Source: an uncultured Acidobacteriota bacterium
GTDB taxonomy: Bacteria > Acidobacteriota > Thermoanaerobaculia > Thermoanaerobaculales > Thermoanaerobaculaceae
Direction: 5' to 3'
Assembly (NCBI GenBank): GCA_963747245.1
Contig: CAVVEO010000004.1
Coordinates: forward strand, 17,876-81,875
DNA: 64,000 nt
A program made the position numbers and the translations under genes. Of the stretch, positions 10,954 through 33,380 are shown piece by piece (positions within the stretch are counted from its first letter, which is position 1; every line of letters begins with the position of its first letter). The notes beneath the pieces are model-generated. The model was not told the DNA's origin, searched no databases, and saw only the letters and a list, made by a program, of their open reading frames with translations.

Positions 10954-12306
10954 ATGGTCTTCTTCAACTGGGCCACAATGCAGATGGCGGCCAAGATCGT
11001 GTACTACGGTCCCGGTCTGTGCGGGAAGACTACCAACCTCTCGTTCATCTACGCCAAGACGGCGCCCGGCTCCCGCGGGGAGATGGTCTCGCTCGAGACC
11101 GAAACCGACCGGACCCTGTTCTTCGACCTCCTTCCGATCGAGGTCGGAAAGGTCGGCGGCTTTCGCACCCGCCTCCAGCTCTACACCGTGCCCGGCCAGG
11201 TCTTCTACAACACGACCCGCAAGCTCGTGCTCAAGGGCGTCGACGGGATGGTTTTCGTGGCGGACTCGCAACGACCGATGGCCGACGCCAACCTCGAGAG
11301 CCTCCAGAACCTCACCGAGAACCTCCTCGAGCTGGGCCTGGCCATCGACACCCTTCCCATTGTCCTGCAATACAACAAGCGCGACCTGAAGAATGTCCTC
11401 GCCCTCGACGAGCTCAACGGCCGGCTCAACCCTGACGGCCGATGGGATTACTTCGAGTCGGTGGCGACCGACGGCACCGGCGTCTTCGAGACCCTGAAGG
11501 CGATCACCAAGCTCACCTTGCGGTCGCTGCGGCGCCGGATGACCACGCACGACGCCACTGGCTCTCCCCTGGCCGCCTCGACTGCATCCGCCCCCTCCGG
11601 CGCCCCGTCGCGGCATCAGGTCGCGTTCAGCCCCGCGGCGCTCGCGGCGGCCGCGGCCGAGGGCCTCGGGACGCTGGCCACCGCCACGCCGGCAACCGAA
11701 CCTGACGCAGAGGAGACGCCCCTCCCGGAGGCGCAAGCGGTCGAGGCGGCGGATGCCCAGCCAGCGGCGGCCGCGGCCGAAGAAGCCGCAGTGTCCGCCG
11801 GGGTTGAGACGTCGGACGCCGAGGCCGCGACGGCGAGCCCGGAGGACACCACGGCCGAGTTCCCGGCCGCCGAGGAGGTCGAGGAGGCCGAAGAGGCGGG
11901 GGTCGAGTTCGCCACCACGCCCGAGGCGGAGCCCGAGGCGGTGGAGACCGAGATGCGCCACGTCAAGGTCTCGTCGTCGCTCGACATCCTTGCCGAACTC
12001 GAGACGCTGCGCAAGTCGAGCACGTACAGACCGGAACCGAGGCCGTCACGGGAAAGCGCGCCGGCGTTCGATCTCGACGCCCTGCTCCAGGGTTCGCTCA
12101 ACTCCCGGCAGGAGGTCAAACGGCGCATCGACGAACAGGTCGGAAGCGCTCTCGGCGAGGCTCACCGCTGCCTGGTCAGCATCCAGCTCGTGGACGGAGA
12201 CGGCCGGGTCGTGAAGGACATGTCGCCTCTGGAGGTCGAGCTCAAGCGCGGCGGCCAGATCCGCCATCTGGCCTTGACACTCCTCGTGAACCTGCAGGGC
12301 GAATGA
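10954..12306 (+). CDS. MglA-like Ras-superfamily GTPase with long C-terminal extension
   Basis: Residues 1-195 track Myxococcus MglA almost position for position (KIVYYGPGLCGKTTN, ETDRTLFFD, YTVPGQVFY, GVDG.VFVADSQ, QYNKRDL). An Ala/Glu/Pro/Thr-rich linker of about 140 aa and a C-terminal region of about 115 aa follow. Confidence 0.9.
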   Translation: MVFFNWATMQMAAKIVYYGPGLCGKTTNLSFIYAKTAPGSRGEMVSLETETDRTLFFDLLPIEVGKVGGFRTRLQLYTVPGQVFYNTTRKLVLKGVDGMVFVADSQRPMADANLESLQNLTENLLELGLAIDTLPIVLQYNKRDLKNVLALDELNGRLNPDGRWDYFESVATDGTGVFETLKAITKLTLRSLRRRMTTHDATGSPLAASTASAPSGAPSRHQVAFSPAALAAAAAEGLGTLATATPATEPDAEETPLPEAQAVEAADAQPAAAAAEEAAVSAGVETSDAEAATASPEDTTAEFPAAEEVEEAEEAGVEFATTPEAEPEAVETEMRHVKVSSSLDILAELETLRKSSTYRPEPRPSRESAPAFDLDALLQGSLNSRQEVKRRIDEQVGSALGEAHRCLVSIQLVDGDGRVVKDMSPLEVELKRGGQIRHLALTLLVNLQGE

Positions 12307-14613: not shown

Positions 14614-15909
14614 CTACTCCTTTCGGGACACCGCGCCGGCCATGATCTCGTTGGAGCGGATCACGCCGAGAATTCGGTCCTGGGCGTCGACGATCGGGAT
14701 CATCCGGTAGTGGTACTTGGCGAAAACCGCGGCGATGTCGTCCTGCACGTCGCTTTCCTCGACCGACACCACCGGGGACGTCATGATCGACGACACCGGA
14801 GCGTCGTCCGCCGCGAGCACGAGTTCGCGCAGGTCGACGACCCCCGCGAGGGTGCGTCCTTCCTGGTTGACCACGTACACGTACGAGATCGTCTCCGGCT
14901 CGGATCCCGACTTCCGGATCCGATCGAGCAACGGCCCCACTCTGGTGTCGAACGGAACCGCAATGAACTCGGGTGACATCAACGCCCCGGCCGTCGCCTC
15001 GCGCTCCGAGAGGATCGCCCTGATCCTCGAGGCGTCCTCGGGCGACAGCACGTCCATGAGCTCGGTCGCGTCGTCGTGCGGTAGGACCGAGAACAGCTTG
15101 GCGAGCTGCGGGACGCTCATCTCCGAGAGGATCAGCCGGGCCCGCTCCTTGCGGAGGTCGGCGATCAGCTGGCGTTGGGCGCGCGGCTCGGCCTCGAGCA
15201 GCGTCTCCGCGGCCTTCTCGGAGTCCAGGGCCGAGAACAGCGCTTCCTGCTCGTCGCCCTCGAGCTCCTCGAGCGCGTCGGCGAGGTCCTCGCTCGGAAG
15301 GTCGAGCATCTGCCTGCGGGTCACGGAGAGCGACACCTTGTCGGTCGCGACGGCGTCCTCCACCGACAGCGGCTGGACGTACTTCCACGAGATGAACTCG
15401 TCCTTGACCCATTTCAGCCTGCCGAGGCCCCACCGGCGCAGGATCCCGTTCATCGAGGTGTCCACGTGCACGAGGAGAAGGTGGCCCTTGGCCTCGAGCA
15501 GGTGGACGTCGTTGACCACCTCGGTGCGCCGGCCGTCCATGTCGAGGATCGTGCGGCCCATGAGGTGCGCGTCCACCAGCATCCAGCCCGGCTGGTCGAC
15601 GAACGGCGGGTAGACCGCGCCGGTCTCGGGCGGCTTCACGAAGACCGCGTCGTCCTCGACCTTGACGACCCGTTCCCATGGGACGAACTGCGTCGGCTTG
15701 CCCCACCCGAACTCGAGGACGATGCCGACCGCCTCGGGGTAGGGCTCCTTCAGCGCGAAGACGAGGTCGGAAAGCTTGCCGATCCGGTCCTTGATCTTCC
15801 CGGCACACACCGGTCGCTTGAGCAGCTGGGAGAAGAAGAGGAAGCGGAAGCTCCCGATCCCCTGCGGCAGGTCCGGGACTCTCGGCGGCTGAACGGTCGG
15901 CGCTGCCAT
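14614..15909 (-). CDS. Soluble PRC-barrel-like x2 / MgtE_N / CBS-pair protein (MgtE cytosolic module without a membrane domain)
   Basis: 431 aa. MgtE_N-like acidic helical repeat (LPSEDLADALEELEGDEQEALFSAL..). CBS pair (ALMSPEFIAVP.., IMTSPVVSV..MIPIVD). No TM segments. SD GGAGGA sits 4 nt before the ATG, directly after the Nramp stop. Confidence 0.85.
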   Translation of the reverse strand: MAAPTVQPPRVPDLPQGIGSFRFLFFSQLLKRPVCAGKIKDRIGKLSDLVFALKEPYPEAVGIVLEFGWGKPTQFVPWERVVKVEDDAVFVKPPETGAVYPPFVDQPGWMLVDAHLMGRTILDMDGRRTEVVNDVHLLEAKGHLLLVHVDTSMNGILRRWGLGRLKWVKDEFISWKYVQPLSVEDAVATDKVSLSVTRRQMLDLPSEDLADALEELEGDEQEALFSALDSEKAAETLLEAEPRAQRQLIADLRKERARLILSEMSVPQLAKLFSVLPHDDATELMDVLSPEDASRIRAILSEREATAGALMSPEFIAVPFDTRVGPLLDRIRKSGSEPETISYVYVVNQEGRTLAGVVDLRELVLAADDAPVSSIMTSPVVSVEESDVQDDIAAVFAKYHYRMIPIVDAQDRILGVIRSNEIMAGAVSRKE

Positions 15910-15918
15910 GTCGTCCTC

Positions 15919-17235
15919 CTACTTGCCCGCCCCGAACAAACCGGGGAACAGGGTGCTGATCGCGAACAGCGTGGACATGAACGTCACGAAGAGGACGATG
16001 CCCCAGTTCGCGATGTTCTGCCAGCGGGTGTTGACGTGCTCTCCGACGAACGCCGGATCGTTGAGGATCAGGATGAGGAAGACGAGGGCCGAGGGAAGCA
16101 GCGTCACGGCCGCGACCTGCACGAACATGGTGATCGCGATCAGCGGCGCGCCGGGGATCAGCACGATCGCCCCCGCGCCGAGCAGCATCGCCACGTGCAC
16201 GACGTAGAACCAGGGCGCTTCCTTCACGCTCTTGTTCAGCGAGTGCGCCCAGCCGAACACCTCGCCGACCGCCCAGGAGGTCGAGAGGGAGATGCAGAGG
16301 GCGCCGAGGAACCCCGCGTCGAAGAGCCCGATCGCGAAGAGTTTCCTCGCCAGGACGCCGTACCCGCCGAGGAGCGGCACGATCGCCTCGGCGGTCTGCT
16401 TGGCGTCCTCGATGACGATCGGAGGATGGTGATAGAAGAACGCCGCGCCCGTCGCGATGATGATGAACGCGGCCACGACGCCGGTGATGAGCGACCCCGC
16501 GAAGGTGTCGACCTTGCCGAACTTCACGTCGTGGACGTCGAGCCCCTTGTCGACGACGGAGCTCTGCTGAAAGAAGATCTGCCAGGGCGTGATCGTCGTC
16601 CCGATGTTCGCCAGGATGATGAACAGCAGGCTGCCCGACAGGCCTCCGGGCAACGTCGGGAGGAAGAGCCCCTCGAACACCTTGCCCCAGCCGGGGCTGG
16701 TCGGGGTCTTCATGGCCCAGAACGCCGCCGGGATGTAAACGAGGTTGAAGGCGCAGAAGAAGAGCGTCAGCCGCTCGAAAGTCCAGTACTTCCCGGTCAT
16801 CGAGACGGCCACGAGGATGGCGGTCACCACCAGGAAGGTGACCACCGGCGGGACGCCGAACAGGCTCATCGCCGCGATCATCCCGATGTACTCGGTGACC
16901 AGCGTCAGCAGGTTGACGATCGCGAGGTCGACGAGGGAGAACCAGCCCCAGAACGGGCCGAACCCCTCGAAGATCGCCTCGGCGTGCCCGCGCTTCGTCA
17001 CGGCGCCGAGGCGAACGGTCATCTCCTGGATGTAATACGCCATCGGGACGAGGATGAAGATGATCCAGAGCAGCGAGAAGCCGTACTTGGAGCCGGTCAC
17101 CGCGTAGGTGGAGATCCCGCCGGCGTCGTTGTCGGCCACCATCGTGATGATCCCGGGGCCGAGCACGGCGAGGAAGATGAGGAGCCGGCGCTTGAACCGG
17201 TTCAGGACGTGAAAGCTCTTCGAGACCCAGTACAT
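15919..17235 (-). CDS. Nramp/SLC11-family transporter with non-canonical metal site (NRMT-like)
   Basis: 438 aa with about 11 TM helices. The TM1 motif reads MVADNDAGGIST (canonical DPGN). The TM6 motif reads ANIGTTITPWQIFF (canonical GA.VMPHN). Confidence 0.88.
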   Translation of the reverse strand: MYWVSKSFHVLNRFKRRLLIFLAVLGPGIITMVADNDAGGISTYAVTGSKYGFSLLWIIFILVPMAYYIQEMTVRLGAVTKRGHAEAIFEGFGPFWGWFSLVDLAIVNLLTLVTEYIGMIAAMSLFGVPPVVTFLVVTAILVAVSMTGKYWTFERLTLFFCAFNLVYIPAAFWAMKTPTSPGWGKVFEGLFLPTLPGGLSGSLLFIILANIGTTITPWQIFFQQSSVVDKGLDVHDVKFGKVDTFAGSLITGVVAAFIIIATGAAFFYHHPPIVIEDAKQTAEAIVPLLGGYGVLARKLFAIGLFDAGFLGALCISLSTSWAVGEVFGWAHSLNKSVKEAPWFYVVHVAMLLGAGAIVLIPGAPLIAITMFVQVAAVTLLPSALVFLILILNDPAFVGEHVNTRWQNIANWGIVLFVTFMSTLFAISTLFPGLFGAGK

Positions 17236-17630
17236 GGACCGCTTCCCTCAGCGCTCACGACACGCCCTCCGGGAGCGGGCGTCGTCGCATGCCGAAACCC
17301 TCGGCCCGGCTGCACGTCTCGTTGTCAGGCGGCGAAGCATGCGCATCTCCGTTTCCCCGCAGGGACTCGAGGCCGGAGACGCGCCGCGGATGGGAATCAG
17401 ATGCGCGGTGCCGCAGCGCCCGCCGGCCGGCGAGCCCGGGTGTAGAAGTCGCTTTCCCGACTTGGAGGTTCCATCTGTCCTTTCCACCCCATGGCCGGCG
17501 CCGGCTGCCACGCCGTCGCCTCACGGCACACCACCACGATTGGCCCTTGTAGTCCAGGTCCGCACCGCTTGTCAACCGCCGCCGCGCGACCACCCGGGCG
17601 AGGGGTTTCTTCGCTACAATATTCTCCGAA

Positions 17631-19133
17631 ATGTCTCTCCCCCGCATCCTCGTCACGGGCGCTTCCGGCTTCGTCGGCCGTCACCTCCTCGAGGAGATCA
17701 AGGAGCGGTATCGGATCGTCGGGCTCGGGCGCCGCTCGCAGCGCGACTGTGGCGCGCCGGTGCACGCCAACATCGCCTGGTCGCAGGTCGACATCGGCGA
17801 ACGCGGGAGCCTCGCACGCGTGTTCGAGGGGGTTGCAGCGAGCGGCGGCGCGGACGTGCTGCTGCACCTGGCCGCCCACTACGATTTCACCGGGGCGGAG
17901 GATCCCGAGTACTGGCGAACGAACGTCGAGGGGCTGCGGAACGTCCTCGAACTCGCCAAGGACCTCAAGGTCCGCCGATTCATCTTCGCCAGTTCGGTGG
18001 CGGCGTGCAAGTTCCCTCCGCCGGGCCGGGCCCTTGACGAGACGAGCGTCCCCGACGGCGATCACATCTACGCGCGCACCAAGCGCATCGGCGAGGAGAT
18101 GGTCGGGGAGTACTCCGCGTTCTTTCCCACCTGCACCGTCCGCTTCGCCGCGCTCTTCTCGGACTGGTGCGAGTACCCGCCCCTTTACGTGTTCCTCGAG
18201 ACCTGGTTGTCGCACCGGTGGAACGCGAGGATCCTTGGCGGGCGCGCCGTCTCGGCGATCCCGTACCTGCACGTGCGGGACGCGGTGCGCGCCTTGCAGG
18301 TCCTGCTCGCGCAGCCGGAGCTCCCGCGCGAGCGGGAGGTCTTCGTCATCAGCCCCGACCGCGCCGTCTCGCACCGCGAGCTTTTCACGGCGGCGCGGAT
18401 GGCCGGCCTCGGGCAGGCCTCGCGGCCGATCTGCCTGCCCAAGCCGCTGTGCGGACCCGGCATGCTGACGCGCGACCTGCTCGGACGCGCCCTCGGTGAG
18501 CGGCCGTTCGAGCGGCCATGGATGGCGAAGTACATCGACCTCGCGATGAGGGTGAATGCCGAGCGCACCCGCGGCCGCCTCGGGTGGGCGCCGCGCCCGC
18601 GCCTGGAGATCCTCCGCCGCCTGCCGTTCCTGCTGGAGGACCGCAAGACGCAGCCGGTGAACTGGAGCTGCCTCAACCTTGCGGCGATGAAGACCGTGAA
18701 TATCCGCCCGAACCTCCAGATCCACCGCCTCCTCGAGGCGCATGAGGCGGCGATCTGGGGCGCGATGACCGATCAGCTCCTCATGCCGGACCTCCACCAA
18801 AGGCATTCGAAGTACGAGCAGATCCCGAGACACGAGCACGACTGGTACAACCGGTTGCTGTTGCACAGCCTGATGAACTCGGTCCGCACGCGCGAAAAGG
18901 CGCTGTTTCGCTCGCACTGCCGCGACCTCGCCGAGCGCCGCCGGGTGCAGGGTTTCACCGCGGAGGAGGTTTGCTTCGCGCTCCGCCTCCTCAACGAGAC
19001 CTGCATCAAGATCCTCTCCATGGAACCCGCGCCCGTCAGTCTTGTCGAGCTCGACGACTACATCACCGCCGCGGTGCAGTTCGGCATCGACGAAGTCGAG
19101 GACGTCTTCGACCAGGATGGAGGGGGACGGTAG
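17631..19133 (+). CDS. Extended-SDR (NAD-dependent epimerase/dehydratase fold) fused to a C-terminal helical domain, paralogue 1
   Basis: 500 aa. VTGASGFVGRHL (GxxGxxG), YARTK (YxxxK), SDWCEYPPLYVFL. A helical C-terminal region of about 170 aa. Clear paralogue of 21658..23265. Confidence 0.85.
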   Translation: MSLPRILVTGASGFVGRHLLEEIKERYRIVGLGRRSQRDCGAPVHANIAWSQVDIGERGSLARVFEGVAASGGADVLLHLAAHYDFTGAEDPEYWRTNVEGLRNVLELAKDLKVRRFIFASSVAACKFPPPGRALDETSVPDGDHIYARTKRIGEEMVGEYSAFFPTCTVRFAALFSDWCEYPPLYVFLETWLSHRWNARILGGRAVSAIPYLHVRDAVRALQVLLAQPELPREREVFVISPDRAVSHRELFTAARMAGLGQASRPICLPKPLCGPGMLTRDLLGRALGERPFERPWMAKYIDLAMRVNAERTRGRLGWAPRPRLEILRRLPFLLEDRKTQPVNWSCLNLAAMKTVNIRPNLQIHRLLEAHEAAIWGAMTDQLLMPDLHQRHSKYEQIPRHEHDWYNRLLLHSLMNSVRTREKALFRSHCRDLAERRRVQGFTAEEVCFALRLLNETCIKILSMEPAPVSLVELDDYITAAVQFGIDEVEDVFDQDGGGR

Positions 19134-19175
19134 CGAAGAGCGTCTGGTAGTATCGTTCATCACTGGGAGAGCGCG

Positions 19176-19607
19176 ATGGGATCCGGTCGCAGGCTGATGA
19201 TGATCGACGACGACGTCAACCTGGTGAGCGTCTTCAAGCTCGTCTGCACGGCCAAGGGCTACGAGTTCTTCTCGGCCCACTCCGCCGCCGAGGCCCTCGA
19301 GAAGATCCCGGAAGTGGAGCCCGACGTCATCATCCTTGACGTGATCATGGAGGACTTCGTGGCGGGCTTCCGGGTGGTGAGCGAGCTGCGCGCTGGCGGC
19401 CCGGACTCTCGCTTCGCCAAGTACGCGAAAGTCCCCATCATCATGCTGACGAGCGTGACCAGCAAGACCCACCTCAACTTCTCCGACCGGGTCGGGACGG
19501 CGCTCCTTCCCGTCGACGACTTCATCGAGAAGCCGGTCAAGCCTGCGGAGATCCTGACGAGGATCGACGCCTTGCTGGCGAAGACGCGGGCGCCGGGCGC
19601 CTCCTGA
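19176..19607 (+). CDS. Stand-alone response-regulator receiver protein
   Basis: 143 aa with the acidic pocket IDDD, phospho-acceptor context VIILDVIM, MLTS and EKPVKP. Confidence 0.9.
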   Translation: MGSGRRLMMIDDDVNLVSVFKLVCTAKGYEFFSAHSAAEALEKIPEVEPDVIILDVIMEDFVAGFRVVSELRAGGPDSRFAKYAKVPIIMLTSVTSKTHLNFSDRVGTALLPVDDFIEKPVKPAEILTRIDALLAKTRAPGAS

Positions 19608-19618
19608 CCGCGCGGTCT

Positions 19619-21618
19619 CTATGCCGGCCCGGCGCCGCCGGCGCTCTCGTTCGGCGCCGCGGGCGCGACCGGAAGGGTGAAGATGAACTCCGCCCACCAC
19701 CCCGGATCGGACTCGGCCCAGATATGACCGCCGTGCTTCTCGATGATCCGCTGCGACACGAACAGCCCCAGGCCGGTGCCCGATTTCGTGTCGTCTCCTC
19801 CGGATGAGAGCCGTGAGAACTTCTGGAAGAGCTTCTCGCCGGCGCCCCGCTCGAAACCCTCGCCCTCGTTCCAGACGCTGAAGCGCAACGACCGGCCGTC
19901 ATCGGCCGGATGCGCAGCGACGAGGATCTCCCCGCCTTCGCGGCCGTACTTGATGGCGTTCGACAGGAGGTTCTGGAAGACGGAGGCGACGAGGCCGGGA
20001 TCGCACACGCCGGCGAGACCCGCCGGCACGTCGCAGACGATGCGCATGCCCCGCTCACTCGCCAGATCGGAGAGCCGGTCGATCAGGGGTTCGATCATGC
20101 CGGGGCAGAAGCGGACCTCGGCGAGGTGCAGCTTCAGCTCCCCCTCTTCGATCCGGCTGAGATTGAGGTAGTTCGCGATCGTGTCGCGGAGGTAGTCGGC
20201 ACTGATCGAGGCGGCCTTGAGGAGCGCCTCCTGCTTCGCATTCAGGGAGCCGAGGATATGGTCGCGGAGAGACCCGATGGCGAACACGATCGAGGCGAGC
20301 GGCGACTTCAGCTCGTGCGTGACGAAGCCGAGCATCTCGAGGTAGGCCCGGTTCTTCTCCTCCGCCCGAAGGTACGCCTTCTGCAGGGCGAGGGAAGCCT
20401 CGTGCAGCTCGTTGCTGCGGACCTCGAGGGCCGCCGCCATCGAGTTGAACGCCTGCGCCAGTTCCGTCACCTCCTGGCTGGCGTGGACCACTTTCACCCT
20501 CGCCCCGAGGTTGCCCCCGGAGAGCTCGCGCGTGGCGCGCACCAGGCGCAGGATCGGCCTGCGGAAACCGCTCGAGAGGTACATCGCGATCCCCGCGGCG
20601 AGCGCCAGCGACAGGAACGTGATACCGAGATACTCCAGGGCGAGGCCCGACTTGTACCCGAGGTACTGCTTCTCCAGCAACCCGACGTAGATGATGCCGA
20701 TGATGACGCCCGTCGGGTCCCTGATCGGGTCGTACGCGGAGAGGTACCAGTCGTTCACCACGAACGCCCGGTCGGCGAAACGCTCGCCGCGGCGGAGGAC
20801 CTTGTCGTAGACCTCCTCCGAGATCCTAGTTCCCAGGGCGCGCGTTCCCGTGTCGAGCATCACGTTGGTGGCGATGCGCACGTCCCCAAGGAAGATCGTC
20901 ACGGTGCCCACCGGTTTGCCCAGGTACGTCCGGTCGCCGAACGCGGCGTTGCGAATGCGGTCGACGAGGGCGGACTTCCGGTTGAGCAGGACGCCGCCGT
21001 AGACGACGCCCAGCACGCGCTCGCGGGCGTCGAGCACCGGGATTGCCGCCTCGATGACCATCCCCCGGTCCTCGGCGACCCTGTCCGTGGGGGTCGCGTG
21101 TGCCGTGTAGACGATCGGGATGCGGGCCCTCTCGGCGAGCCGTTCACCCTCGCGGAGCAGCTCGGCCCGCGACATGAGGATCGTGCCGCTGGCGGCCGTC
21201 CCTGCGAGGGCGGGGCCGATGACCGCGTTTGCCTCCACCTTGTCACCCGCCGCGAACGGCGGCCGGGACCGCGCGATCACGCGACCGTCCCCCCCACGAG
21301 GGCGAGGAAGTCGACCTCGTACTTCCGGCGGAACGCGTCGAGCTCGTTCGAGATCCCGGCGCTCGAGAGCTGGCCGCGCAACGCCGACCTCAGAGACTCG
21401 CTCTGGGACACCATGCTCACGACCACCTGCATCCGCGTCCGTTCGGTCTCGTAGGCGGACCAGGCGGCGCCGAGGTCCATCTCGACCCTCAGCATCGCCT
21501 CCTTCACGACCGTCCTGGAGATGAAGGAAAATCCGGTCCAGGTGCTGACGGATGCCACGATCCCGATCACCAGGATGAACCCCAGCAGCAGCCGGGTCCT
21601 GAAGGTGAGGTTCGTCAC
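19619..21618 (-). pseudogene. Cache-type / HAMP / HisKA / HATPase sensor histidine kinase, reading frame broken at a C7 (G7 on the coding strand) homopolymer
   Basis: Two ORFs. 21277..21618 encodes TM1 plus the start of the periplasmic Cache-like domain and ends ..FLALVGGTVA*. 19619..21280 (GTG start) encodes the rest of the Cache-like domain, TM2, HAMP, H-box FVTHELKSPL and the N/G boxes. One extra G in the run at 21289-21295 gives continuous ..FLALVGGDGRVIARSR.. (about 666 aa). Confidence 0.8.
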
Positions 21619-21657
21619 GGACGGGCTCCGGCCGAGGGAGACTCTCCGGTCAACGCC

Positions 21658-23265
21658 TCATCTCCTCTGCACGAGGCAGTTCCAGATCGTGCTCTCGATG
21701 GACTCACGGGCCGTCGTGCCGTCCTCCCCGGAGGTCTTGACAGCGTCGCCGGACATCGTCGCGACGCGCTCATCCAGCCGTTCGTACTGACCCCGCACCT
21801 CCTCCATCGCCAGCTCGATCGGCACGGTGATTCGGTCGAAGACCTCCTGCTCGAGACGTTTGAGGTCGACTCGCCGCCTCAGCGCCGCGACCACGGCGTC
21901 GTTCATCGCCTGCAGGAACAGGCAGACCTCGTTCACCGAGAACCCGGCCTTGAACCGGCTGCCCCCCGTCACCTCGAGGTAGTTCACCAGCAGCATCCTG
22001 TTGCTCGTCTGCACCGAGGTCAGCAGCAGCCTGTGCAGCAGCCGCACCAGCCAGACCAGCTCGGAGTCCTCCATCGCCCCGTACGACGGCAGGCGGCCCA
22101 GCGCCGCCTCCTCGCCGACCCGGGCGACGATCGAGCCGATGATCTGGTTCTCCTCGGTGACGAGCGCCTTGAGGATCGCGAGGTCGGGACGGGCGATGTC
22201 CTTCCTCATCACCGCCGCGTTCCGCGCGTGCCACTCCACCGGCTCGCTCTTGAAGCGCTCGATCAGAAAGGGCAGCCGCCTCTCCATCTGATTCCTGGGG
22301 CTCGGCGACCAGTCGAGGCGCGTACGGCTTTGCGAGTTGTCCACCTCCATCCGCCGGTCGATGTAGTGGTACATCCAGAGCCGCTCGAACGGCATCCGTC
22401 CACGCAGTTTCCCCAGGGCACTCATCAGCACCATGCCGAGGCCGCAGAGCGGGACGGGGCACGGAACCGGCCTCCTCGCCGACCCGGTGTAGGAACGGGT
22501 CGCGAGCTCGAACAGCGTGCGGTGCGAGGTGCAGCCCGTCGTGGACGCGATCAGTATCTCGCCCGGCACGAGAAGCTCGCGGCGGAGCAGCAAGCGCCTG
22601 AGAAACGCGACGACGTCCCGGATGTGGATGTAGGGGATGGCGCTCAGGCCCCGCCCCCCCAGGATCCTCGCCCTCCACGACCCGCCGAGCCAGGTGTTGA
22701 GGAAAACGTACAGCGGCGGGTATTCGCACCAGTCGCTGTACACCGCTCCGAAACGCACGATGCAGGTCGGAATCGCTCCCTGCTGCTCGAGCACCAGCCG
22801 CTCGCCCTCCCGCTTGCTCCAGGCGTAAATGTGCCGTCCGTCAGGCGGAGTCGCCTCGGTGATCGGGCCCTCCCGCCTCGGGAATTCGCACGCCGCCACC
22901 GAGCTCGCGAACACGAAGCGCTCGAGGTCTAGGTTCCTCGCCAGTTCGAGGACGTTCTTCGTCCCCTCGACGTTCGTCCGCCGGTACTCCGGCCGGTGCT
23001 CGCCGGCGTAGTCGTAGTACGCCGCGAGGTGGAGGAGGACTTTGGCCCCCCCCGCGGAGGCGATCTCGCGGAACGTCCTCGCCAGACCGTCGATGTCGCC
23101 GATGTCCACCTGCATCCATGCGATGTTGGGATGTACGGGCGCACCGCACTCGCGCTGGGAGCGACGGGCGATCGCGAAGACCCGGTACTCATCCTTGAGG
23201 TCCTCGAGGAGATGCCGCCCAACGAAGCCGGATGCGCCGGTGACGATCAGCGCCGGCCGGGGCAT
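21658..23265 (-). CDS. Extended-SDR fused to a C-terminal helical domain, paralogue 2
   Basis: ORF 21658..23295 trimmed to the ATG at 23265 (MPRPALIVTGASGFVGRHL..), which has SD GAGGTGG 7 nt upstream and aligns with the paralogue 1 start. YAWSK, SDWCEYPPLYVFL. A C-terminal extension of about 190 aa. Confidence 0.85.
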   Translation of the reverse strand: MPRPALIVTGASGFVGRHLLEDLKDEYRVFAIARRSQRECGAPVHPNIAWMQVDIGDIDGLARTFREIASAGGAKVLLHLAAYYDYAGEHRPEYRRTNVEGTKNVLELARNLDLERFVFASSVAACEFPRREGPITEATPPDGRHIYAWSKREGERLVLEQQGAIPTCIVRFGAVYSDWCEYPPLYVFLNTWLGGSWRARILGGRGLSAIPYIHIRDVVAFLRRLLLRRELLVPGEILIASTTGCTSHRTLFELATRSYTGSARRPVPCPVPLCGLGMVLMSALGKLRGRMPFERLWMYHYIDRRMEVDNSQSRTRLDWSPSPRNQMERRLPFLIERFKSEPVEWHARNAAVMRKDIARPDLAILKALVTEENQIIGSIVARVGEEAALGRLPSYGAMEDSELVWLVRLLHRLLLTSVQTSNRMLLVNYLEVTGGSRFKAGFSVNEVCLFLQAMNDAVVAALRRRVDLKRLEQEVFDRITVPIELAMEEVRGQYERLDERVATMSGDAVKTSGEDGTTARESIESTIWNCLVQRR

Positions 23266-23410
23266 GCGAAAACCACCTCGAGACTCTTGAGACAACCGCC
23301 GGTCATCGCGGATTTCCCTTCGTCTTCGAGTAAGAATAGCATCCCGGCCGGCTCGATCGGCGCCGCGGCGCGCCTCTCGACGACATCACGGTTCCGGTGC
23401 CGGCGCCGGC

Positions 23411-23824
23411 CTAGGACCGCCTCGGGGCCGGACGGGGCGCGCCGGCGGAGCGGACCATCCGGCGCGCCAGAAGCACGGCGAGGCCCATCAGCCCGTCCGC
23501 GGCCCCTGCGAAGCCCACGAACCACGGCCCCCCCCCCAACAGCGCCGCCGCTCCCAGGAAGACGGTCGCGAGCGCCTTCGCCGTCAGCAGCAGGACGACA
23601 CCCCGCTGGCGCGCGTACTCCAGCAGGTAGCCCGTCCCGAGCACCAGGTGGAACACACCCGCCTGGCGCGGGAAGAAGAGCGGCGGGACCGTCTCCCAAC
23701 CCCCGAACCGGAGCGCCCACGCCGGCACGACCAGCAGCGCGATCCCGATCGCGTACGTGTGCACGGCGACCAGCACGACCAGCCACCGTTCCAGGAGGTC
23801 GGCCCGAGCGCCGTCGATCCTCAC
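23411..23824 (-). CDS. Hypothetical membrane protein downstream of hybD
   Basis: Hydrophobic, about four helices. The ORF track starts it at 23839. A GTG at 23824 gives a GTGA overlap with the hybD stop, the coupling pattern used throughout this window. Confidence 0.6.
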   Translation of the reverse strand: MRIDGARADLLERWLVVLVAVHTYAIGIALLVVPAWALRFGGWETVPPLFFPRQAGVFHLVLGTGYLLEYARQRGVVLLLTAKALATVFLGAAALLGGGPWFVGFAGAADGLMGLAVLLARRMVRSAGAPRPAPRRS

Positions 23825-24381
23825 GGCCGCTCCCACCACAGGTCCGGAGGCGACTCCTGCGACCTCGGGCGGGCGGGGACGCCCAGACGCGCGAGCTCGC
23901 GCACCACCTCGGCCGCCGCATCCGGCACGGCGGCGCGCACCGCGGGCGTGAGGCCGATGCCGGTCGTCACCCTGCCGGGGACCACCCCGACCAGCAGCAC
24001 CTCGCGCGGCCCGCCGCCGGCGAACGCCACGGTCAGGAGGGCTTCCTTGAGGCCGGGGTCGTGCGGCGAAAGGCGCGGCTGGGGCGGGCTCTTGAGGATC
24101 TCGTCGCGGCGGTACAGGACGATCGACCCGGCGGCGCCCGGCGCGCCCACCGTGTCCACGATGACCGCCGCGTCAAACCCCAGCAGGTACGGCGTGAGGT
24201 CGAGGCCGGGGGTGCCGAGGTCGTGTACCGCCACCTCCGGGGGGAACTCGAACCCAGCGTCCAGGGCGCCGATCACCGTCGGGCCCAGGGCGTCGTCCCC
24301 CATCAGCACGTTGCCGAGCCCGATCACGGCCACCCGCCGCTGCGTCTCGCCCCCGTCTTCGGCGGCGCTCTCGTCGCTCAT
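23821..24381 (-). CDS. hybD: [NiFe] hydrogenase maturation endopeptidase (HybD/HyaD family)
   Basis: 186 aa with VIGLGNVLMGDDALG and DLGTPGLDL..IVDTV. Confidence 0.92.
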   Translation of the reverse strand: MSDESAAEDGGETQRRVAVIGLGNVLMGDDALGPTVIGALDAGFEFPPEVAVHDLGTPGLDLTPYLLGFDAAVIVDTVGAPGAAGSIVLYRRDEILKSPPQPRLSPHDPGLKEALLTVAFAGGGPREVLLVGVVPGRVTTGIGLTPAVRAAVPDAAAEVVRELARLGVPARPRSQESPPDLWWERP

Positions 24382-24489
24382 CGCTCCTCGCCGGCTCGTG
24401 CGCGCACATTCCAGGGGCGGGAGCCTTGCCCCCGCCCCGACCTGATCGCTGCCCGGATGGGCGTGCCTCCTCGACCCCGGCCGCCGCGT

Positions 24490-26193
24490 CTAGGTCAGGG
24501 TCCTGATCTTCGACAGCTCGTTCCCTTCGACGTCCAGCGTGTGGATCGCGCATGCCAGGCAGGGGTCGAACGAGTGCACCGTGCGCAGGACCTCGAGAGG
24601 CTTCTGGGTATCGGCGATCGGGTTCCCCACCAGCGAGGCCTCGTACGGTCCCTTCTGCCCCTTCTCGTCGCGCGGTCCCGCGTTCCAGGTGGACGGGACC
24701 ACGGCCTGGTAGTTGGCGATCTTGCCGTCCTTGATCACGATCCAGTGCGACAGGGTGCCGCGCGGCGCCTCGTGGAACCCGAAGCCGCGCTGCTCGCCCG
24801 CCGGGTAGGTCCAGGGCGTGAAGATCGCGACGTCGCCCTTGCCGACGTTCTCGATGAGGAGCTGCAGGTGCTTGGAGGCCAACTCCGACAACGTCGCCGC
24901 CCGCACCGCCCGCGCGGCGTGCCGCCCCAGCGTCGAGTGGAGCACGGCCGGAGTCAGCTTGACCTTGGCGATCGCCGAGGCGGTGTTCAACACCTGGTCG
25001 GCGTACTTCTTGATGATCGGATGGCCGGTGGCGTAGCCCACGAGCACCTGGGCCAGAGGACCCACCTGCATCGGCCGGCCTTGGAACCGCGGCGCCTTGA
25101 CCCACGAGTACTTCTTGTCGCCGTCGAAATCGGTGTAGTGCGGGACGGTCTCCTCCTCCCACGGGTGTTTGTCCCAGTCGCCGTCGTACCAGGCGTGGGC
25201 GATGCTCTCCGTCACGTTGTCCTTGAAGTAGGGGTCCTGGAAGCTCGTGATCTGCTTGAGGGTCGAGAGGTTGCCGTCGAAGATCGTCCCGCCCGGCAGG
25301 TCGAACTGGGTGCCCTTGGTGTCGAGGGGCAGGTCCGGCACCGACAGGTAGTTGGTGACGCCGCCGCCGTAGCCGAGCCACTCGGGGTACATCGCGCCGA
25401 TCGCCGCGACGTCCGGCACGTAGACCTGCTGCACGAACGCCGCGACCTCGTCCAGGAGGTCCTTCATCATGAACAGCTTTTCCATGTTCAGCGTGGCCTG
25501 GTTGTCGAGGTTGATCGCGTTCGCCACGCCGCCGACGGCGAGGTTCTGGATGTTGGGCGTCTTGCTGCCGAGGATCGCCACCACCTTGTTGGCCTTGAAC
25601 TGGTACTCGAGCGCCTGCAGGTAGTGAGCCACCGCCAACAGGTTGACCTCCGGCGGCAGCTTCATCGCCGGGTGGCCCCAGTAGCCGTTCGTGAAGATCC
25701 CGAGCTGCCCGCCGGCGACGAAGCTCGCGAGCTTGTCCTTGACCGCCTCCATCTCGCGCTTCGAGTTGTGCGGCCAGGGGGACAGGCTCTCGGCCAGCGC
25801 CGAGGCCTTGGCCGGATCGGCCTTGAGCGCCGACGTCACGTCTACCCAGTCGAGCGCCGACAGGTGGTAGAAGTGCACCATGTGGTCGTGCAGCGCGTGT
25901 GCGGCCACGATCACGTTGCGGATGTACTGAGCGTTGATCGGGATCTCGATGTTGAGCGCGTTCTCGACGGCGCGCACCGAGGCGATCGCGTGGACGGTCG
26001 TGCACACGCCACACAGACGCTGGGTGAAGATCCAGGCGTCGCGCGGGTCGCGGCCCTGGAGGATCGTCTCGATGCCGCGGTACATCTGCCCCGAGGACCA
26101 GGAGTTCTTCACCCGGCCGCCGTCGACCTCGACGTCGATGCGGAGGTGCCCTTCGATGCGGGTGATCGGATCTACCGTGATTCGCGTGCTCAT
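24490..26193 (-). CDS. hybC: [NiFe] hydrogenase large subunit, group 1 (Hyb-type)
   Basis: 567 aa with PITRIEGH, N-terminal RLCGVC, C-terminal DPCLACAIH and a short cleavable tail. Confidence 0.97.
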   Translation of the reverse strand: MSTRITVDPITRIEGHLRIDVEVDGGRVKNSWSSGQMYRGIETILQGRDPRDAWIFTQRLCGVCTTVHAIASVRAVENALNIEIPINAQYIRNVIVAAHALHDHMVHFYHLSALDWVDVTSALKADPAKASALAESLSPWPHNSKREMEAVKDKLASFVAGGQLGIFTNGYWGHPAMKLPPEVNLLAVAHYLQALEYQFKANKVVAILGSKTPNIQNLAVGGVANAINLDNQATLNMEKLFMMKDLLDEVAAFVQQVYVPDVAAIGAMYPEWLGYGGGVTNYLSVPDLPLDTKGTQFDLPGGTIFDGNLSTLKQITSFQDPYFKDNVTESIAHAWYDGDWDKHPWEEETVPHYTDFDGDKKYSWVKAPRFQGRPMQVGPLAQVLVGYATGHPIIKKYADQVLNTASAIAKVKLTPAVLHSTLGRHAARAVRAATLSELASKHLQLLIENVGKGDVAIFTPWTYPAGEQRGFGFHEAPRGTLSHWIVIKDGKIANYQAVVPSTWNAGPRDEKGQKGPYEASLVGNPIADTQKPLEVLRTVHSFDPCLACAIHTLDVEGNELSKIRTLT

Positions 26194-26202
26194 GTCTCCC
26201 CC

Positions 26203-27384
26203 TTAGAAAGTCGTCTTCGCGGGCGCGGGGCCCTCGAGGATCGGGAACGTCTTGACCACCGCGATATAGATCGCAACCTCGGCCGCGATGATGCCGAAGG
26301 TGATCAGGAGCTCCGGGACGGCTGGAAAGTACGAGAACGCCGATCCGGGCCGGAACGCCACCAGATAGGTGTCCACCCGGTGCAGCGCGGCGCCGAGGAA
26401 CAACAGGATCGCGCCCCGCACCTGCCAGACGGCCTGGTGGCGCCGCTCGGAAAGCAGGATCGCGGCGGCAGCGAGCGGCAGGAGCACCTCCGCCATGAAT
26501 GCGATCCCGTAGCCGCTGATGAGGTATCCCAGCTTGCCGGCGAGAGCCGCCTCGCCGACCCGGAAGACCGACCAGCCGACCGCGACCCATGCCGCGACCC
26601 GGGAGAGCGAAGCGAGCATCGCGGTCTCGCGGGGACGGCCGAACGCCGCGGCGGAGAACGTCGCCTCCAGCACCACCACCGCGTACCCGATCAGGATGCA
26701 GTTCACGACGAAGAGCAGCGGCAGCCAGGGCGTCAGCCAGAGCGGGTGCATCCTGGGCCCGGGCAGGAGCATCATCGTCCCCAGCGACGACTGGTGCATC
26801 GTCGGCAGCAGCAAACCGAGGGCGAGGATCCAGACGAAGTTCTTCTCCACGAGCGTGAGGCCCCTCTCCGCCATGCGGCGCAGGCGGGTCGAGGTGCCGG
26901 CGCGGAGCTTCTCGAACAGCGCCGGCGAGAGCTCGATCATCAGCACCAGGGTGTACGCGGCGACGCAGAGGGCGACCTCGAGCTGCGGAGAGTGGGACCA
27001 GCGCCAGACGTAGACCGGGACCTTCCACAGGCTCCAGAAGCGCCCGAGGTCGATGACCACGGCGATCACCGCGAGCCCGTAGCCGAGTAGGCTCGTCAGC
27101 ACGGCAGGGCGGACCAGGGGGTGGTACTGCCCCCGGTTGAGGATGTACACGAGGATCCCGACCGCGTAGCCGCCGCACCCGATCGCCGTGCCGACGACGA
27201 CGTCGATCGCGATCCACACGCCCCACGGATAGCCGTTGGAAAGGTTCGAGACGGCGCCGATGCCGTAGAGGAACCGGACCGCCGCCATCACCGCCCCGAC
27301 ACCTGCGATCGCGAGCAGCGCGATGAACGGCCGGGTCATCAGCCGGCCGCCCATGGCGACGTGGACCTGGGCGTGGCTGCTCAT
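26203..27384 (-). CDS. hybB: NrfD/HybB-type integral membrane subunit of the hydrogenase
   Basis: Last 393 codons of ORF 26203..28014, starting MSSHAQVH.. About 10 TM helices. SD GAAGGAGGG upstream. ATGA overlap with the hybA stop. Confidence 0.9.
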   Translation of the reverse strand: MSSHAQVHVAMGGRLMTRPFIALLAIAGVGAVMAAVRFLYGIGAVSNLSNGYPWGVWIAIDVVVGTAIGCGGYAVGILVYILNRGQYHPLVRPAVLTSLLGYGLAVIAVVIDLGRFWSLWKVPVYVWRWSHSPQLEVALCVAAYTLVLMIELSPALFEKLRAGTSTRLRRMAERGLTLVEKNFVWILALGLLLPTMHQSSLGTMMLLPGPRMHPLWLTPWLPLLFVVNCILIGYAVVVLEATFSAAAFGRPRETAMLASLSRVAAWVAVGWSVFRVGEAALAGKLGYLISGYGIAFMAEVLLPLAAAAILLSERRHQAVWQVRGAILLFLGAALHRVDTYLVAFRPGSAFSYFPAVPELLITFGIIAAEVAIYIAVVKTFPILEGPAPAKTTF

Positions 27385-28325
27385 CGCTTTCCCTCCTTCT
27401 CGGCGGCGCCGACCGAATCGGCCCGGCGGTTCCGGTAGATCACCGCCCCGAGCACGGCGAACAGACCAACGGGTGCGACGAACGGGACCTTGTAGTAGAT
27501 CCCCTCCTGCACCGCGTAAGCGGTCTCCGGTACGGGCTGCGTTCCGAGGTCGGGAAGCCCGATCCTGTCGAACGGCACGTGCGCGAGGTACAGCACCTGC
27601 GTCCCGCCGCCGTCGAACTCGCCGTACACCCGGTCCTTGTAGTACTTGCCAGGCCACGCCGCGATCCTGCGCTTCGCCTCGGCGAGCAGCTCGTCCCGCC
27701 GGCCGTAGATCACGGCCTCGCGCGGGCACACCTCGCAGCACGCGGGGCCCTGGCCCTTGGGGTAGCGGGTGAAGCCTCCCGCGCCCATGACCGCGGCATC
27801 CTTGATCCGCTGCCGGCAGAGTTCGCACTTGACGATCTTTGGCGCGGCCTTCTCGAACTCGAACTTCGGCACGTTGAACGGGCACGCCATCATGCAGTAG
27901 CGGCAGCCCACGCAGTAGGTCGGGTCGTACATGACGACCCCGGTCACCTCGTCCTTGTGCAGCGAGTGCAGCATGCACGCCGAGGCGCACCCGGGATCTA
28001 CGCAATGCATGCACTGCTGCTTGACGAACGACTCCTGCTCACCATCTTGGTAGCGCTTGATGATGTTCTTGGTCGTGCTGTCGAGGTCGGTGGGAGCGTC
28101 CCAGAGACCGCCGTTGGCGGCGCTGTCGGCGGGCATGTCGTTCGCCTGCTTGCACGCCACCACGCACGTCTTGCACCCGATGCACAGCGTCGCGTCGTAC
28201 AACATCCCCATCGCTCCGGGAGGCGCGGTCTTCCGGACGGCGGCACCGGCTGGAACGACGCCTGCGGCAACGGCCGTCCCGCCGACGGCGAGTGACTTGA
28301 TGAGGGAGCGTCGGTCGATCGCCAT
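27381..28325 (-). CDS. hybA: HybA-type periplasmic 4x[4Fe-4S] ferredoxin subunit (Tat signal, C-terminal anchor)
   Basis: 314 aa with a twin-arginine signal (DRRSLIKSL), several CxxCxxCxxxCP motifs and a C-terminal TM helix. Confidence 0.92.
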   Translation of the reverse strand: MAIDRRSLIKSLAVGGTAVAAGVVPAGAAVRKTAPPGAMGMLYDATLCIGCKTCVVACKQANDMPADSAANGGLWDAPTDLDSTTKNIIKRYQDGEQESFVKQQCMHCVDPGCASACMLHSLHKDEVTGVVMYDPTYCVGCRYCMMACPFNVPKFEFEKAAPKIVKCELCRQRIKDAAVMGAGGFTRYPKGQGPACCEVCPREAVIYGRRDELLAEAKRRIAAWPGKYYKDRVYGEFDGGGTQVLYLAHVPFDRIGLPDLGTQPVPETAYAVQEGIYYKVPFVAPVGLFAVLGAVIYRNRRADSVGAAEKEGKR

Positions 28326-28326
28326 G

Positions 28327-29463
28327 TCACGCCCCCTTGTCCGGCTTGGTGCCCGCCTTCTCGCCGCCGCCGTCCACCTTCTTGGCCGCCACCCACCCGC
28401 CGCCCACGAGCGCGCCGCCGACCAACCCCGCGAGCCCGGCTGCAGCGGCGCTGACCGCTCCCTGGTGCGCCTTGATCGGCGGGTAGCCGTCGGGAGGCGT
28501 CGGGTGCTCGATCTCGACCGTCGTGTGCAGCGGAATGCGGAACGCGACCGCCTGCTCGGTGCAGCCGACGCAGGGGTGGCCGACGCCGATCGGCCACGCG
28601 CCCGGCACCTCGCAGAACGGTTGCAACGAGCAGTTGGCGTGCGTCACCGGGCCCTTGCACCCCATCTTGTACAGGCACCACCCGTTGCGGTGGCCCTCGT
28701 CGCCGAACTGCTGCACGAAGCGGCCGGCGTCGAAGTGCGGCCGCCGCGGGCAGTCCTCGTGGATGACGCGCCCGTAGGCGAAGCGCGGCCGACCCTTTTC
28801 GTCGAGCGCCGGCAACGTGCCGAACGTCACGAACTGCAGCGCGGTGCCGAGGAAGTTGTACGGGTTCGCAGGGCAACCCGGGATGGTCACCACCGTCTTT
28901 CCGGCCAGGATCGTCGGCGCGCCGGTCGCGCCGGTGGGGTTGGGGTCCGCCGATGGGATACCGCCCCACGAGGCGCACGAGCCGATCGCGATGATCGCCC
29001 CGGCCTTTTCCGCGACCTCGTTCAGCATGTCGACCGCGGTCTTGCCGCCAATCTTGCAGTAGATCCCGTTGTCCTTCGTCGGGATCGCGCCCTCGACGAC
29101 GCAGATGTACTTGCCCGCGTTCGCCGCCATCGCGCTCTTGAGCGCGTCCTCCGCCTGGTACCCGGCCGCCGCAAAGAGCGTCTCGCAGTAATCCAGCGAC
29201 ACGAGGTCGAGAATCAACTGCGCGAGCGCCGGGTGCGAGGTGCGCAAGAGCGACTCGGTGCACCCGGTGCACTCCTGGAAGTGGAGCCAGATGACCGACG
29301 GCTTGAGCCCCTTGGCCGCGGCCTCGGCCCACTTGACGCCGACCGACGCCGGCAGGCCGACGGCCACGGCGGCCATCGTGCAGACTCGAATGAAGTCCCG
29401 CCGGTCCAACCCATGACGATCCGAAAGCACGCGATCCGCATCGTTCCGTCTCGAGCTTGGCAT
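28327..29463 (-). CDS. hybO: [NiFe] hydrogenase small subunit (Tat signal, C-terminal anchor)
   Basis: 378 aa with a Tat motif (DRRDFIRV), WLHFQECTGCTESLL, GSCASWGG and GCPANP, plus a C-terminal hydrophobic anchor. Confidence 0.96.
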   Translation of the reverse strand: MPSSRRNDADRVLSDRHGLDRRDFIRVCTMAAVAVGLPASVGVKWAEAAAKGLKPSVIWLHFQECTGCTESLLRTSHPALAQLILDLVSLDYCETLFAAAGYQAEDALKSAMAANAGKYICVVEGAIPTKDNGIYCKIGGKTAVDMLNEVAEKAGAIIAIGSCASWGGIPSADPNPTGATGAPTILAGKTVVTIPGCPANPYNFLGTALQFVTFGTLPALDEKGRPRFAYGRVIHEDCPRRPHFDAGRFVQQFGDEGHRNGWCLYKMGCKGPVTHANCSLQPFCEVPGAWPIGVGHPCVGCTEQAVAFRIPLHTTVEIEHPTPPDGYPPIKAHQGAVSAAAAGLAGLVGGALVGGGWVAAKKVDGGGEKAGTKPDKGA

Positions 29464-33263: not shown

Positions 33264-33380
33264 GAGACAGAGGCGTGCTCCGTGGTCGGTGGTCCGCAGC
33301 CGGCGGCCGGCGCTGCCGCCGGGCCGCGGCCCGGGTCGTATCCGCCCACCGGCCGCCCGCCACGCGGTTGGGGAGACAAC

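Follow-up and report, generated by a model that had tools for sequence, protein, structure and literature searches.

What do two paralogous short-chain dehydrogenase/reductase (SDR) proteins do on either side of a two-component system? The question is raised by a window of 64,000 nucleotides (nt; about 70% GC) of contig CAVVEO010000004.1 from an uncultured Acidobacteriota bacterium, in which two such genes, here called P1 and P2, point toward each other around a stand-alone receiver and a Cache-domain histidine kinase. A sequence-only reading of this DNA had taken the arrangement for a signalling cassette in which enzyme-like proteins carry a sensor-type domain. We propose, and give an even chance of being right, that P1 and P2 are parts of an SDR-globin unit which is tethered to the membrane, depends on NADP(H), is controlled by a phosphorelay and is linked to hydrogen respiration. 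Two modules are observed. In the first, a gene of the P1 lineage and a gene for a small four-transmembrane protein, memb142, lie beside a HybOABCD-type uptake hydrogenase; the second consists of memb142, P2, a Cache/HAMP kinase and a convergent receiver without output domain, and is fixed in the P2 lineage. Genes of both lineages are preferentially found with those of a respiratory uptake hydrogenase. The features of the window on which the argument turns are:

17631-19133, plus strand: P1, SDR-globin protein of the P1 lineage, 500 aa; Pfam Epimerase, E 9e-28
17631-18605, plus strand: extended-SDR domain of P1 (residues 1-325)
18606-19115, plus strand: putative globin-like, RsbRD_N-related domain of P1 (residues ~326-495)
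19176-19607, plus strand: stand-alone receiver, 143 aa; Pfam Response_reg only, E 4e-15
19619-21618, minus strand: sensor histidine kinase with transmembrane segment, periplasmic Cache (sCache_3_3 / Cache_3-Cache_2), transmembrane segment, HAMP, HisKA and HATPase_c (Pfam)
21658-23265, minus strand: P2, SDR-globin protein of the P2 lineage, 535 aa; Pfam Epimerase, E 2.6e-28
22291-23265, minus strand: SDR domain of P2
21661-22290, minus strand: putative globin-like domain of P2 and lineage-specific C-terminal tail (ESTIWNCLVQRR)
23411-23839, minus strand: memb142, an unannotated four-transmembrane family; no Pfam match
23821-29463, minus strand: Hyb-type (group 1) respiratory [NiFe] hydrogenase operon; memb142 and P2 follow it directly on the same strand

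P1 and P2 are paralogues of a widespread family

Both open reading frames (ORFs) lie where the sequence-only reading had placed them and are true paralogues, aligning by BLASTP over 496 residues with 47% identity and one gap (E 8e-150). Its estimate that over half of the first ~330 residues are identical is correct for the SDR part, with 56.4% identity in residues 1-330 and 27.6% beyond, and the shared motifs that it quoted were all found in the two proteins, among them TGASGFVGRHLLE, RRSQR(D/E)CGAPVH, RTNVEG, FASSVAAC, YxxxK and SDWCEYPPLYVFL. The P2 ORF is extendable to a TTG at 23295; we favour the ATG at 23265 because the orthologues, including one that is 99% identical, are 535 aa long. 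A promoter scan of positions 17200-24500 returned no promoter-like sites and two terminator-like sites, no excess over shuffled sequences, and is uninformative on operon structure.

Relatives were sought in contigs representing one genome per species; 332 were confirmed, spanning more than ten phyla, and 80 loci were fetched for neighbourhood work. Represented among them are Acidobacteriota, Myxococcota, Desulfobacterota, Krumholzibacteriota, Eisenbacteria, Fibrobacterota, Bacteroidota, Ignavibacteriae, Calditrichota, Marinimicrobia, Latescibacterota and Lentisphaeria; family members are present in Anaeromyxobacteraceae and in an Archangium metagenome-assembled genome (L036-L039). Orthologues of P1 and of P2 form separate groups, each present in several phyla, and a neighbour-joining tree of 95 full-length genes resolves three clades: P1, P2 and a divergent clade C. 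Because the tree separates these clades, the P1/P2 duplication is judged to be ancient and not peculiar to this genome; a duplication unique to this genome is ruled out by the separate orthologue groups together with the tree. Database names for the family are 'hypothetical' or the generic 'nucleoside-diphosphate-sugar epimerase'. Among the papers searched, none describes an SDR-globin family or the cassette layout, which agrees with the earlier remark that no such system was known, and we classify the combination as a new one of known kinds of component (SDR, sensor globin, two-component system) in an undescribed context.

A four-transmembrane protein and an uptake hydrogenase are the most conserved neighbours

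The strongest conserved partners of the family, memb142 and the hydrogenase, lie outside the coordinates covered by the sequence-only reading. Neighbours were counted by tblastn of the window proteins against the loci and then with family hidden Markov models (HMMs); the counts are lower bounds, with several loci cut by contig ends. They rest on these searches and not on gene calls because the caller, which required high GC content at third codon positions (GC3) and GC1 > GC2, merges hybA into hybB in places. By clade, the counts are:

P1 clade, 54 genes: memb142 within 400 nt of 37, HybC within 10 kb of 35, Cache kinase within 400 nt of 0, receiver within 3 kb of 4
P2 clade, 13 genes: memb142 within 400 nt of 8, HybC within 10 kb of 6, Cache kinase within 400 nt of 11, receiver within 3 kb of 11
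Clade C, 28 genes: memb142 within 400 nt of 17, HybC within 10 kb of 5, Cache kinase within 400 nt of 1, receiver within 3 kb of 2

The most frequent of these neighbours is memb142, with family HMM matches in 65 loci. Its homologues are all 'hypothetical', carry no Pfam domain and are typically 137 aa long, and for this last reason the real start in the window is probably at 23824 (137 aa), with a 4-nt overlap with the stop of hybD. Four hydrophobic segments are visible, and in 62 sequences H27, G47, F55, Q59, G61, F63, H64, Y71, K88, F94, L95 and D115 are invariant and F56 is conserved at 98%.

The Hyb-type operon is the next commonest neighbour in the P1 lineage. In the window, the minus strand reads hybOABCD, memb142, P2, kinase, and all five Hyb parts (small subunit, HybA ferredoxin, HybB, large subunit and endopeptidase) are present, the class being assigned by Pfam and not by phylogeny:

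28327-29463, minus strand: hybO; Pfam Oxidored_q6 and NiFe_hyd_SSU_C
27381-28325, minus strand: hybA; Pfam Fer4_11
26203-27384, minus strand: hybB (NrfD-like); Pfam NrfD
24490-26193, minus strand: hybC; Pfam NiFeSe_Hases, E 3e-225
23821-24381, minus strand: hybD protease; Pfam HycI

Genes for hyp maturation proteins are often found near the hyb operon. Across the loci examined, no conserved neighbour family was found beyond memb142, the hydrogenase, the kinase, the receiver and the others named here.

Divergent from the hyb operon is a six-gene cluster (29792-36599, plus strand) encoding HdrC-like (Fer4_17), HdrB-like (two CCG domains), HdrA-like (Pyr_redox_2 and Fer4), MvhD (FlpD), Fer4_22 and FAD/NAD-binding DHODB-type proteins, a content that identifies it as a predicted Flx/Hdr-type NAD(P)H-linked module. 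HdrB/C-like genes also adjoin clade-C SDR-globin genes in Desulfobacterales (L059).

The kinase and receiver form a fixed cassette with P2

The receiver stands alone, as the sequence-only reading had it, and its residues align with those of CheY: an acidic pocket DDD, the phospho-acceptor Asp in ILDVIME, the T/S in MLTSV and the K in EKPV. For the kinase, the Cache/HAMP architecture was rightly recognised, but not its state, since a 1-nt frameshift splits the supposed single intact ORF into 21277-21618 (113 aa) and 19619-21280 (553 aa) in different frames. Relative to L001 (91% related) and L002, one nucleotide is deleted from a C7 run at 21288-21294; restoring it yields a kinase of 666 aa, the length found in those two loci, with the H-box FVTHELKSPL. 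Either an error (of assembly or in the homopolymer) or a genuine loss of function could account for the frameshift. The cytoplasmic part of the kinase consists of HAMP, HisKA and HATPase_c only, with no cytoplasmic sensor domain of its own.

Seven P2 orthologues (47-60% identity), from one contig and from metagenome-assembled genomes of Acidobacteriota, Zixibacteria, Calditrichia and Eisenbacteria, were fetched independently, and all seven show P2, a gap of ~25-45 nt, a Cache_3-Cache_2/HAMP/HisKA/HATPase_c kinase and a convergent receiver of 136-146 aa. In four of them memb142 lies just upstream, and in a fifth (L081) it lies ~2 kb upstream, after hybD; a Hyb-type hydrogenase is within 8 kb in four. 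The same Cache/HAMP kinase follows every one of the 13 P2-type genes, two copies being partial where contigs end, and the convergent orphan receiver is present in all 11 P2 loci that reach far enough. The cassette receivers score 173-300 bits against the window receiver, as against 45 bits or less for other receivers in the loci, and by these scores are tight orthologues.

For the P1 lineage, the four receivers that lie within 3 kb are all at loci where a P2 cassette adjoins P1, and since they occur only there the mirror-image bracket is a lineage-specific juxtaposition. It is found only in L001 and L002 (83-91% identical to P1) and, as a variant, in L023. Three further loci, L003-L005, keep the window's left flank (the MglA-like gene, transglycosylase, membrane protein, PRC/MgtE_N/CBS protein and NRAMP) and there P1 directly faces memb142-hybD-hybC, with no P2, kinase or receiver. 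The earlier suggestion that this SDR subfamily is syntenic with two-component genes therefore applies to the P2 lineage (in Acidobacteriota, Zixibacteria, Calditrichia and Eisenbacteria) and not to the P1 lineage, for which we rejected a general tie, a receiver being near only 4/54 genes.

Other genes recur beside P2 cassettes. A MarR gene precedes the adjacent hyb operon in three cassette loci (L082, 14520-15635; L086, 12575-13738; L088, 12284-12859) with a NikR gene alongside it in L082 and in L086; MarR and NikR may be the transcriptional regulators that the orphan receiver does not supply. A 135-aa Rieske gene follows the receiver in L081 (12168-12575), and Rieske/cytochrome b genes are present in L083 (15235-16793).

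The N-terminal half is an extended SDR

Pfam Epimerase (PF01370) matches the two window proteins with 97.8 and 99.5 bits (cut-off 20.9), and the cofactor loop TGASGFVG (TGxxGxxG) and the catalytic set S121, Y147 and K151 are intact in the family. In an 80-sequence alignment G10, S12, G13, G16, R34, R35, D54, S121 and K151 are invariant and Y147 is conserved at 90% or more. An AlphaFold2 model of P1 (mean predicted local distance difference test score, pLDDT, 91.2; predicted template-modelling score, pTM, 0.76) has the extended-SDR fold from residue 1 to about 325, and Foldseek against the PDB aligns this part with GalE and RmlB (E ~1e-16, target-normalised template-modelling (TM) score ~0.8) over ~350 columns at 16-22% identity, in alignments that exclude the C-terminal domain. 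The substrate half is rich in invariant aromatic and charged residues, as in DWCEYPP and PFERPWM..YID. No NCBIfam equivalog was reached: HpnA scored 67 bits against a cut-off of 368 and GalE 45 against 262, and the nearest models, all far below threshold, were HpnA, thioester reductase and OleD. Pfam also gives 3Beta_HSD and NAD_binding_4 matches, families of lipid-acting SDRs. On these comparisons the N-terminal half is a bona fide extended SDR and not an equivalog of any named enzyme. The invariant Arg-Arg pair after strand beta2 (R34, R35), which we liken to the RR(S/A)S motif of GDP-mannose dehydratase, is the one feature that suggests NADP(H) as the cofactor.

The C-terminal domain resembles sensor-type globins

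Beyond the SDR part, both proteins carry the helical extension that the sequence-only reading had noticed; in the P1 model residues 327-494 are all-helical, a domain of ~170 residues. It is foreign to known epimerases, as had been supposed, in that a sequence-profile search of the PDB gave generic SDR matches over residues 1-230 only and left it unmatched. When this domain was modelled in isolation (pLDDT 83.5) and compared with the PDB by Foldseek, the 50 best listed matches were all of the globin fold (phycobiliproteins or globins; E ~1e-2, TM score 0.45-0.67), among them phycocyanin beta and ApcE, the sensor globins of DosC and BpeGReg, and myoglobin. RsbRD_N (PF14361) matches P1 at residues 365-457 below its gathering threshold (16.2-18.8 bits against 24.3; E 0.018 with the whole protein, 0.0028 with the isolated domain), P2 has no RsbRD_N match in Pfam, and 8 of 30 family members match at E <=0.1 (best E 5.6e-4, profile positions 2-99 of 104); many homologues carry a precomputed PF14361 match. 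The hunch of a non-haem globin of the RsbR/RsbRD type is thus supported by recurrent sub-threshold PF14361 matches and by the globin matches in Foldseek.

In alignments of the C-terminal domain no His is conserved in both the P1 and the P2 lineage; haem binding is unlikely because no proximal His is conserved, and we rejected haem or bilin binding on the same ground. On this evidence, the domain is best described as a sensor-type globin, probably a distant relative of RsbRD_N, and as haem-less because the two lineages share no His. P2-type proteins, of ~535 aa, end in a conserved tail with the consensus LLEETIWxCLVQRK that is confined to them. Three residues of the globin-like domain (~18741-18976) are conserved in the P1 lineage only, C430 at 95% and H371 at 87% in 38 sequences and C448 at 90% or more in a 30-sequence alignment; they could form a redox or metal site.

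Natural fusions

When the C-terminal domain was used for an exhaustive profile search, 427 proteins scored E <=1e-3. Among the 150 matches listed, nearly all full-length proteins carry the domain at about residues 328-510, where SDR-globin proteins have it, and most shorter ones look like gene fragments. Several family members are fused to other domains:

memb142 at the C-terminus: P0260, one contig; HMM E 1e-42
memb142 at the N-terminus of a P2-type protein: P0255, two contigs; HMM E 4e-36
receiver (REC): P0342 and P0390, two independent sources
Rieske: P0256 and P0391, two sources, one of them a contig of 190 kb
PAS: P0367 plus another two full-length members, from three sources
complete [FeFe] hydrogenase: P0331, one contig

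With memb142 fused at either end, an even number of transmembrane segments, and NADP(H) available on that side, the fusions suggest that the soluble SDR-globin part lies at the cytoplasmic face of the membrane. Locus L090 encodes, in this order, memb142 (HMM E 4e-40), SDR-globin-REC and a PilS-type kinase with six transmembrane segments, which by analogy is the logic of the window cassette with a different kinase and with the receiver fused to the SDR-globin protein. We rejected the fused REC as an orthologue of the cassette receiver, and owing to its low identity it serves as an analogy only. The [FeFe] fusion is a 1104-aa gene call (L089, 102-3416) that joins an SDR-globin protein to Fer2_4, NADH-G_4Fe-4S_3, Fe_hyd_lg_C and Fe_hyd_SSU, with TSCSPAW as the L1 motif; it is convergent with an Mvh-type [NiFe] cluster of MvhD, small subunit, large subunit and HycI.

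A proposed phosphorelay acting on a membrane-tethered SDR

The proposal can be put as a series of steps. The Cache domain of the kinase would sense a periplasmic ligand, and the kinase would phosphorylate the stand-alone receiver; the phosphorylated receiver would contact the SDR-globin protein or proteins directly, probably through the globin domain. This contact would alter the NADP(H)-dependent activity, the redox-sensing or the conformational state of the protein at the membrane, and the changed state would tune hydrogen-driven electron transport. The SDR-globin protein is the candidate target because the receiver has no output domain and because a REC is elsewhere fused to an SDR-globin protein beside a kinase. 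In a bolder form, which we hold tentatively and lean against as a whole, this is a hitherto unrecognised anaerobic-respiration device that spans phyla, in which the output of a two-component system is not transcription but an NADP(H)-dependent SDR that is tethered to the membrane and that a phosphorylated single-domain receiver switches through a haem-less globin; the SDR would work with its four-transmembrane partner where the uptake hydrogenase is anchored in the membrane, and in other lineages at Rnf or Hdr complexes.

Several observations weigh against the proposal. Clade-C genes adjoin RnfCDGEA-RnfB clusters or HdrA/B/C-like and radical-SAM genes, and the link to hydrogenase is for that reason lineage-dependent; moreover, synteny with a hydrogenase does not amount to its regulation. 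The frameshift in the window's kinase may mean either that the cassette does not work in this genome or that a homopolymer error is present in the sequence. The memb142 and [FeFe]-hydrogenase fusions, each on one or two metagenomic contigs, could be gene-calling read-through, and the REC of P0342 shares no more than 21% identity with the receiver of the cassette. Finally, the catalytic residues, being intact and invariant, are at least as compatible with a working enzyme as with a pure sensor, and perhaps more so.

This last point leads to a serious alternative, which we nevertheless find doubtful, that the SDR-globin protein and memb142 form a membrane-bound NADPH-dependent reductase or dehydrogenase acting on a lipid, a quinone or a hydrogenase-related cofactor, much as 3-beta-HSD-type SDRs are held on a four-transmembrane scaffold, with the globin domain only dimerising or binding substrate and the kinase and receiver sharing its regulation or sensing its product. 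The invariant catalytic Ser and Lys and nearly invariant Tyr are what such an enzyme would have, the DWCEYPP and PFERPWM..YID residues suggest a specific ligand, the transmembrane helices of memb142 contain invariant polar residues (H27, Q59, H64, Y71, K88 and D115), and the nearest models (HpnA, thioester reductase, OleD, 3Beta_HSD and NAD_binding_4) are of fitting kinds. The NCBIfam scores are all far under their cut-offs, however, as for HpnA; no biosynthetic neighbours are conserved across the loci; and a fixed kinase operon, REC and PAS fusions and a sensor-type globin would be odd for a plain biosynthetic enzyme. A plain enzyme of another kind, an ordinary nucleotide-sugar epimerase or dehydratase for envelope polysaccharide that was duplicated in this genome and came to lie near two-component genes by chance, would explain the source label 'nucleoside-diphosphate-sugar epimerase' and the rank of GalE and RmlB as best structural matches. 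We consider it very improbable: no GalE/RmlB-type enzyme among these distant matches has the C-terminal domain, P1 and P2 orthologues occur in several phyla, and the synteny contradicts it, the neighbours being hydrogenase, memb142, kinase and receiver genes and not glycosyltransferases.

The order of events could also be reversed, with P2 as a co-sensor of cytoplasmic NADP(H) or redox state that feeds the Cache kinase, for example through its C-terminal tail, while the receiver acts on an unlinked target. P2 lies immediately upstream of the kinase in every cassette, the tail is exclusive to P2-type proteins, the kinase has no cytoplasmic sensor of its own, and SDR-fold redox sensors of the NmrA type offer a precedent; yet the REC fusion fits an SDR-globin protein better as target than as input, and the catalytic residues are kept, unlike those of NmrA, so that we think this unlikely. 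The partner-switch idea of the sequence-only reading, in which the RsbRD_N-like domain would recruit RsbS/RsbT-type partners as in a stressosome, has the weak RsbRD_N similarity in its favour and did not hold up: neither the window nor the conserved neighbour clusters contain a STAS, RsbS or RsbT-type component, or a PP2C phosphatase, and the domain is C-terminal to an enzyme fold, not N-terminal in a STAS protein. We would be surprised if it proved correct.

Comparison with known systems

With GalE and RmlB the family shares the Rossmann fold, the TGxxGxxG loop, the Ser-Tyr-Lys set and a two-lobed architecture; it differs in its 170-residue globin-like domain, its DWCEYPP and PFERPWM motifs, its four-transmembrane partner and its neighbours, which are hydrogenase and two-component genes and no glycan genes. 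Globin-coupled sensors (DosC, BpeGReg, HemAT) and the N-domain of RsbR likewise fuse a sensor-type globin to a functional domain, whereas here the globin is C-terminal and its partner is an SDR and not a cyclase, a methyl-accepting chemotaxis protein or STAS; unlike the haem-binding sensors, SDR-globin proteins have no conserved proximal His, and RsbRD_N scores below threshold in the window proteins. NmrA and HSCARG are SDR-fold redox sensors that regulate by protein-protein contact. They have the same NAD(P)-binding SDR fold, and one SDR-globin member has a faint NmrA match, but NmrA-type proteins have lost the catalytic Tyr and have no globin domain or membrane partner, whereas SDR-globin proteins keep the catalytic residues.

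The HupUV/HoxBC-HoxJ-HoxA systems also place two-component genes beside an uptake [NiFe] hydrogenase operon. There a regulatory hydrogenase is the sensor, the kinase is soluble with a PAS domain and the regulator is a DNA-binding protein of NtrC type, whereas the window cassette has a periplasmic Cache kinase, an output-less receiver and an SDR-globin accessory. In sterol C4-demethylation the SDRs ERG26 and ERG27 are tethered by the four-transmembrane scaffold ERG28. The pairing of a 3-beta-HSD-like SDR with a four-transmembrane protein of ~140 residues is alike; this is an analogy only, with no detectable sequence relation and with a context of energy metabolism in place of sterol or hopanoid genes.

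Other features of the window

On the left flank, 14614-17235 (minus strand) encodes a soluble PRC-barrel, MgtE_N and CBS protein without a transporter domain, and an NRAMP transporter gene follows immediately downstream. The two are kept together in L001, L004 and L005 (in L005 with the gene order reversed); both genes are detected by tblastn in L003, and L002 breaks off inside NRAMP. This arrangement suggests that the protein is an MgtE-type cytoplasmic gate acting on NRAMP. Further left, 10954-12306 (plus strand) encodes what appears by eye to be an MglA-like small GTPase (KIVYYGPGLCGKTTNL) with an Ala/Glu/Pro-rich extension of ~250 residues, which has no Pfam match at E <=1e-4; this gene and the LysM lytic transglycosylase gene downstream are conserved in L001 and L003-L005. 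The segment 6471-9986 (minus strand) is an ordinary hrcA-grpE-dnaK heat-shock operon.

Implications

Several hundred proteins currently mis-named 'nucleoside-diphosphate-sugar epimerase' can be set apart, and a conserved, unnamed unit of three parts can be defined: the SDR-globin protein, its four-transmembrane partner and the pair of Cache kinase and orphan receiver that one lineage adds. It is found repeatedly by hydrogenase, Rnf and Hdr-type clusters in more than ten phyla. It provides a concrete candidate target for single-domain receivers, an enzyme-fold protein backed by a natural REC fusion, and a new partner class for globin-type sensor domains. In many uncultured phyla of soils and sediments, hydrogen respiration is driven by uptake hydrogenases of the Hyb type; to our knowledge, essentially nothing is known of their control outside Proteobacteria, and the unit supplies candidate accessory or regulatory factors of hydrogen metabolism. 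Should the phylum-spanning device outlined above be real, hydrogen-driven electron flow would be matched to the nicotinamide redox state or to the external electron acceptor.

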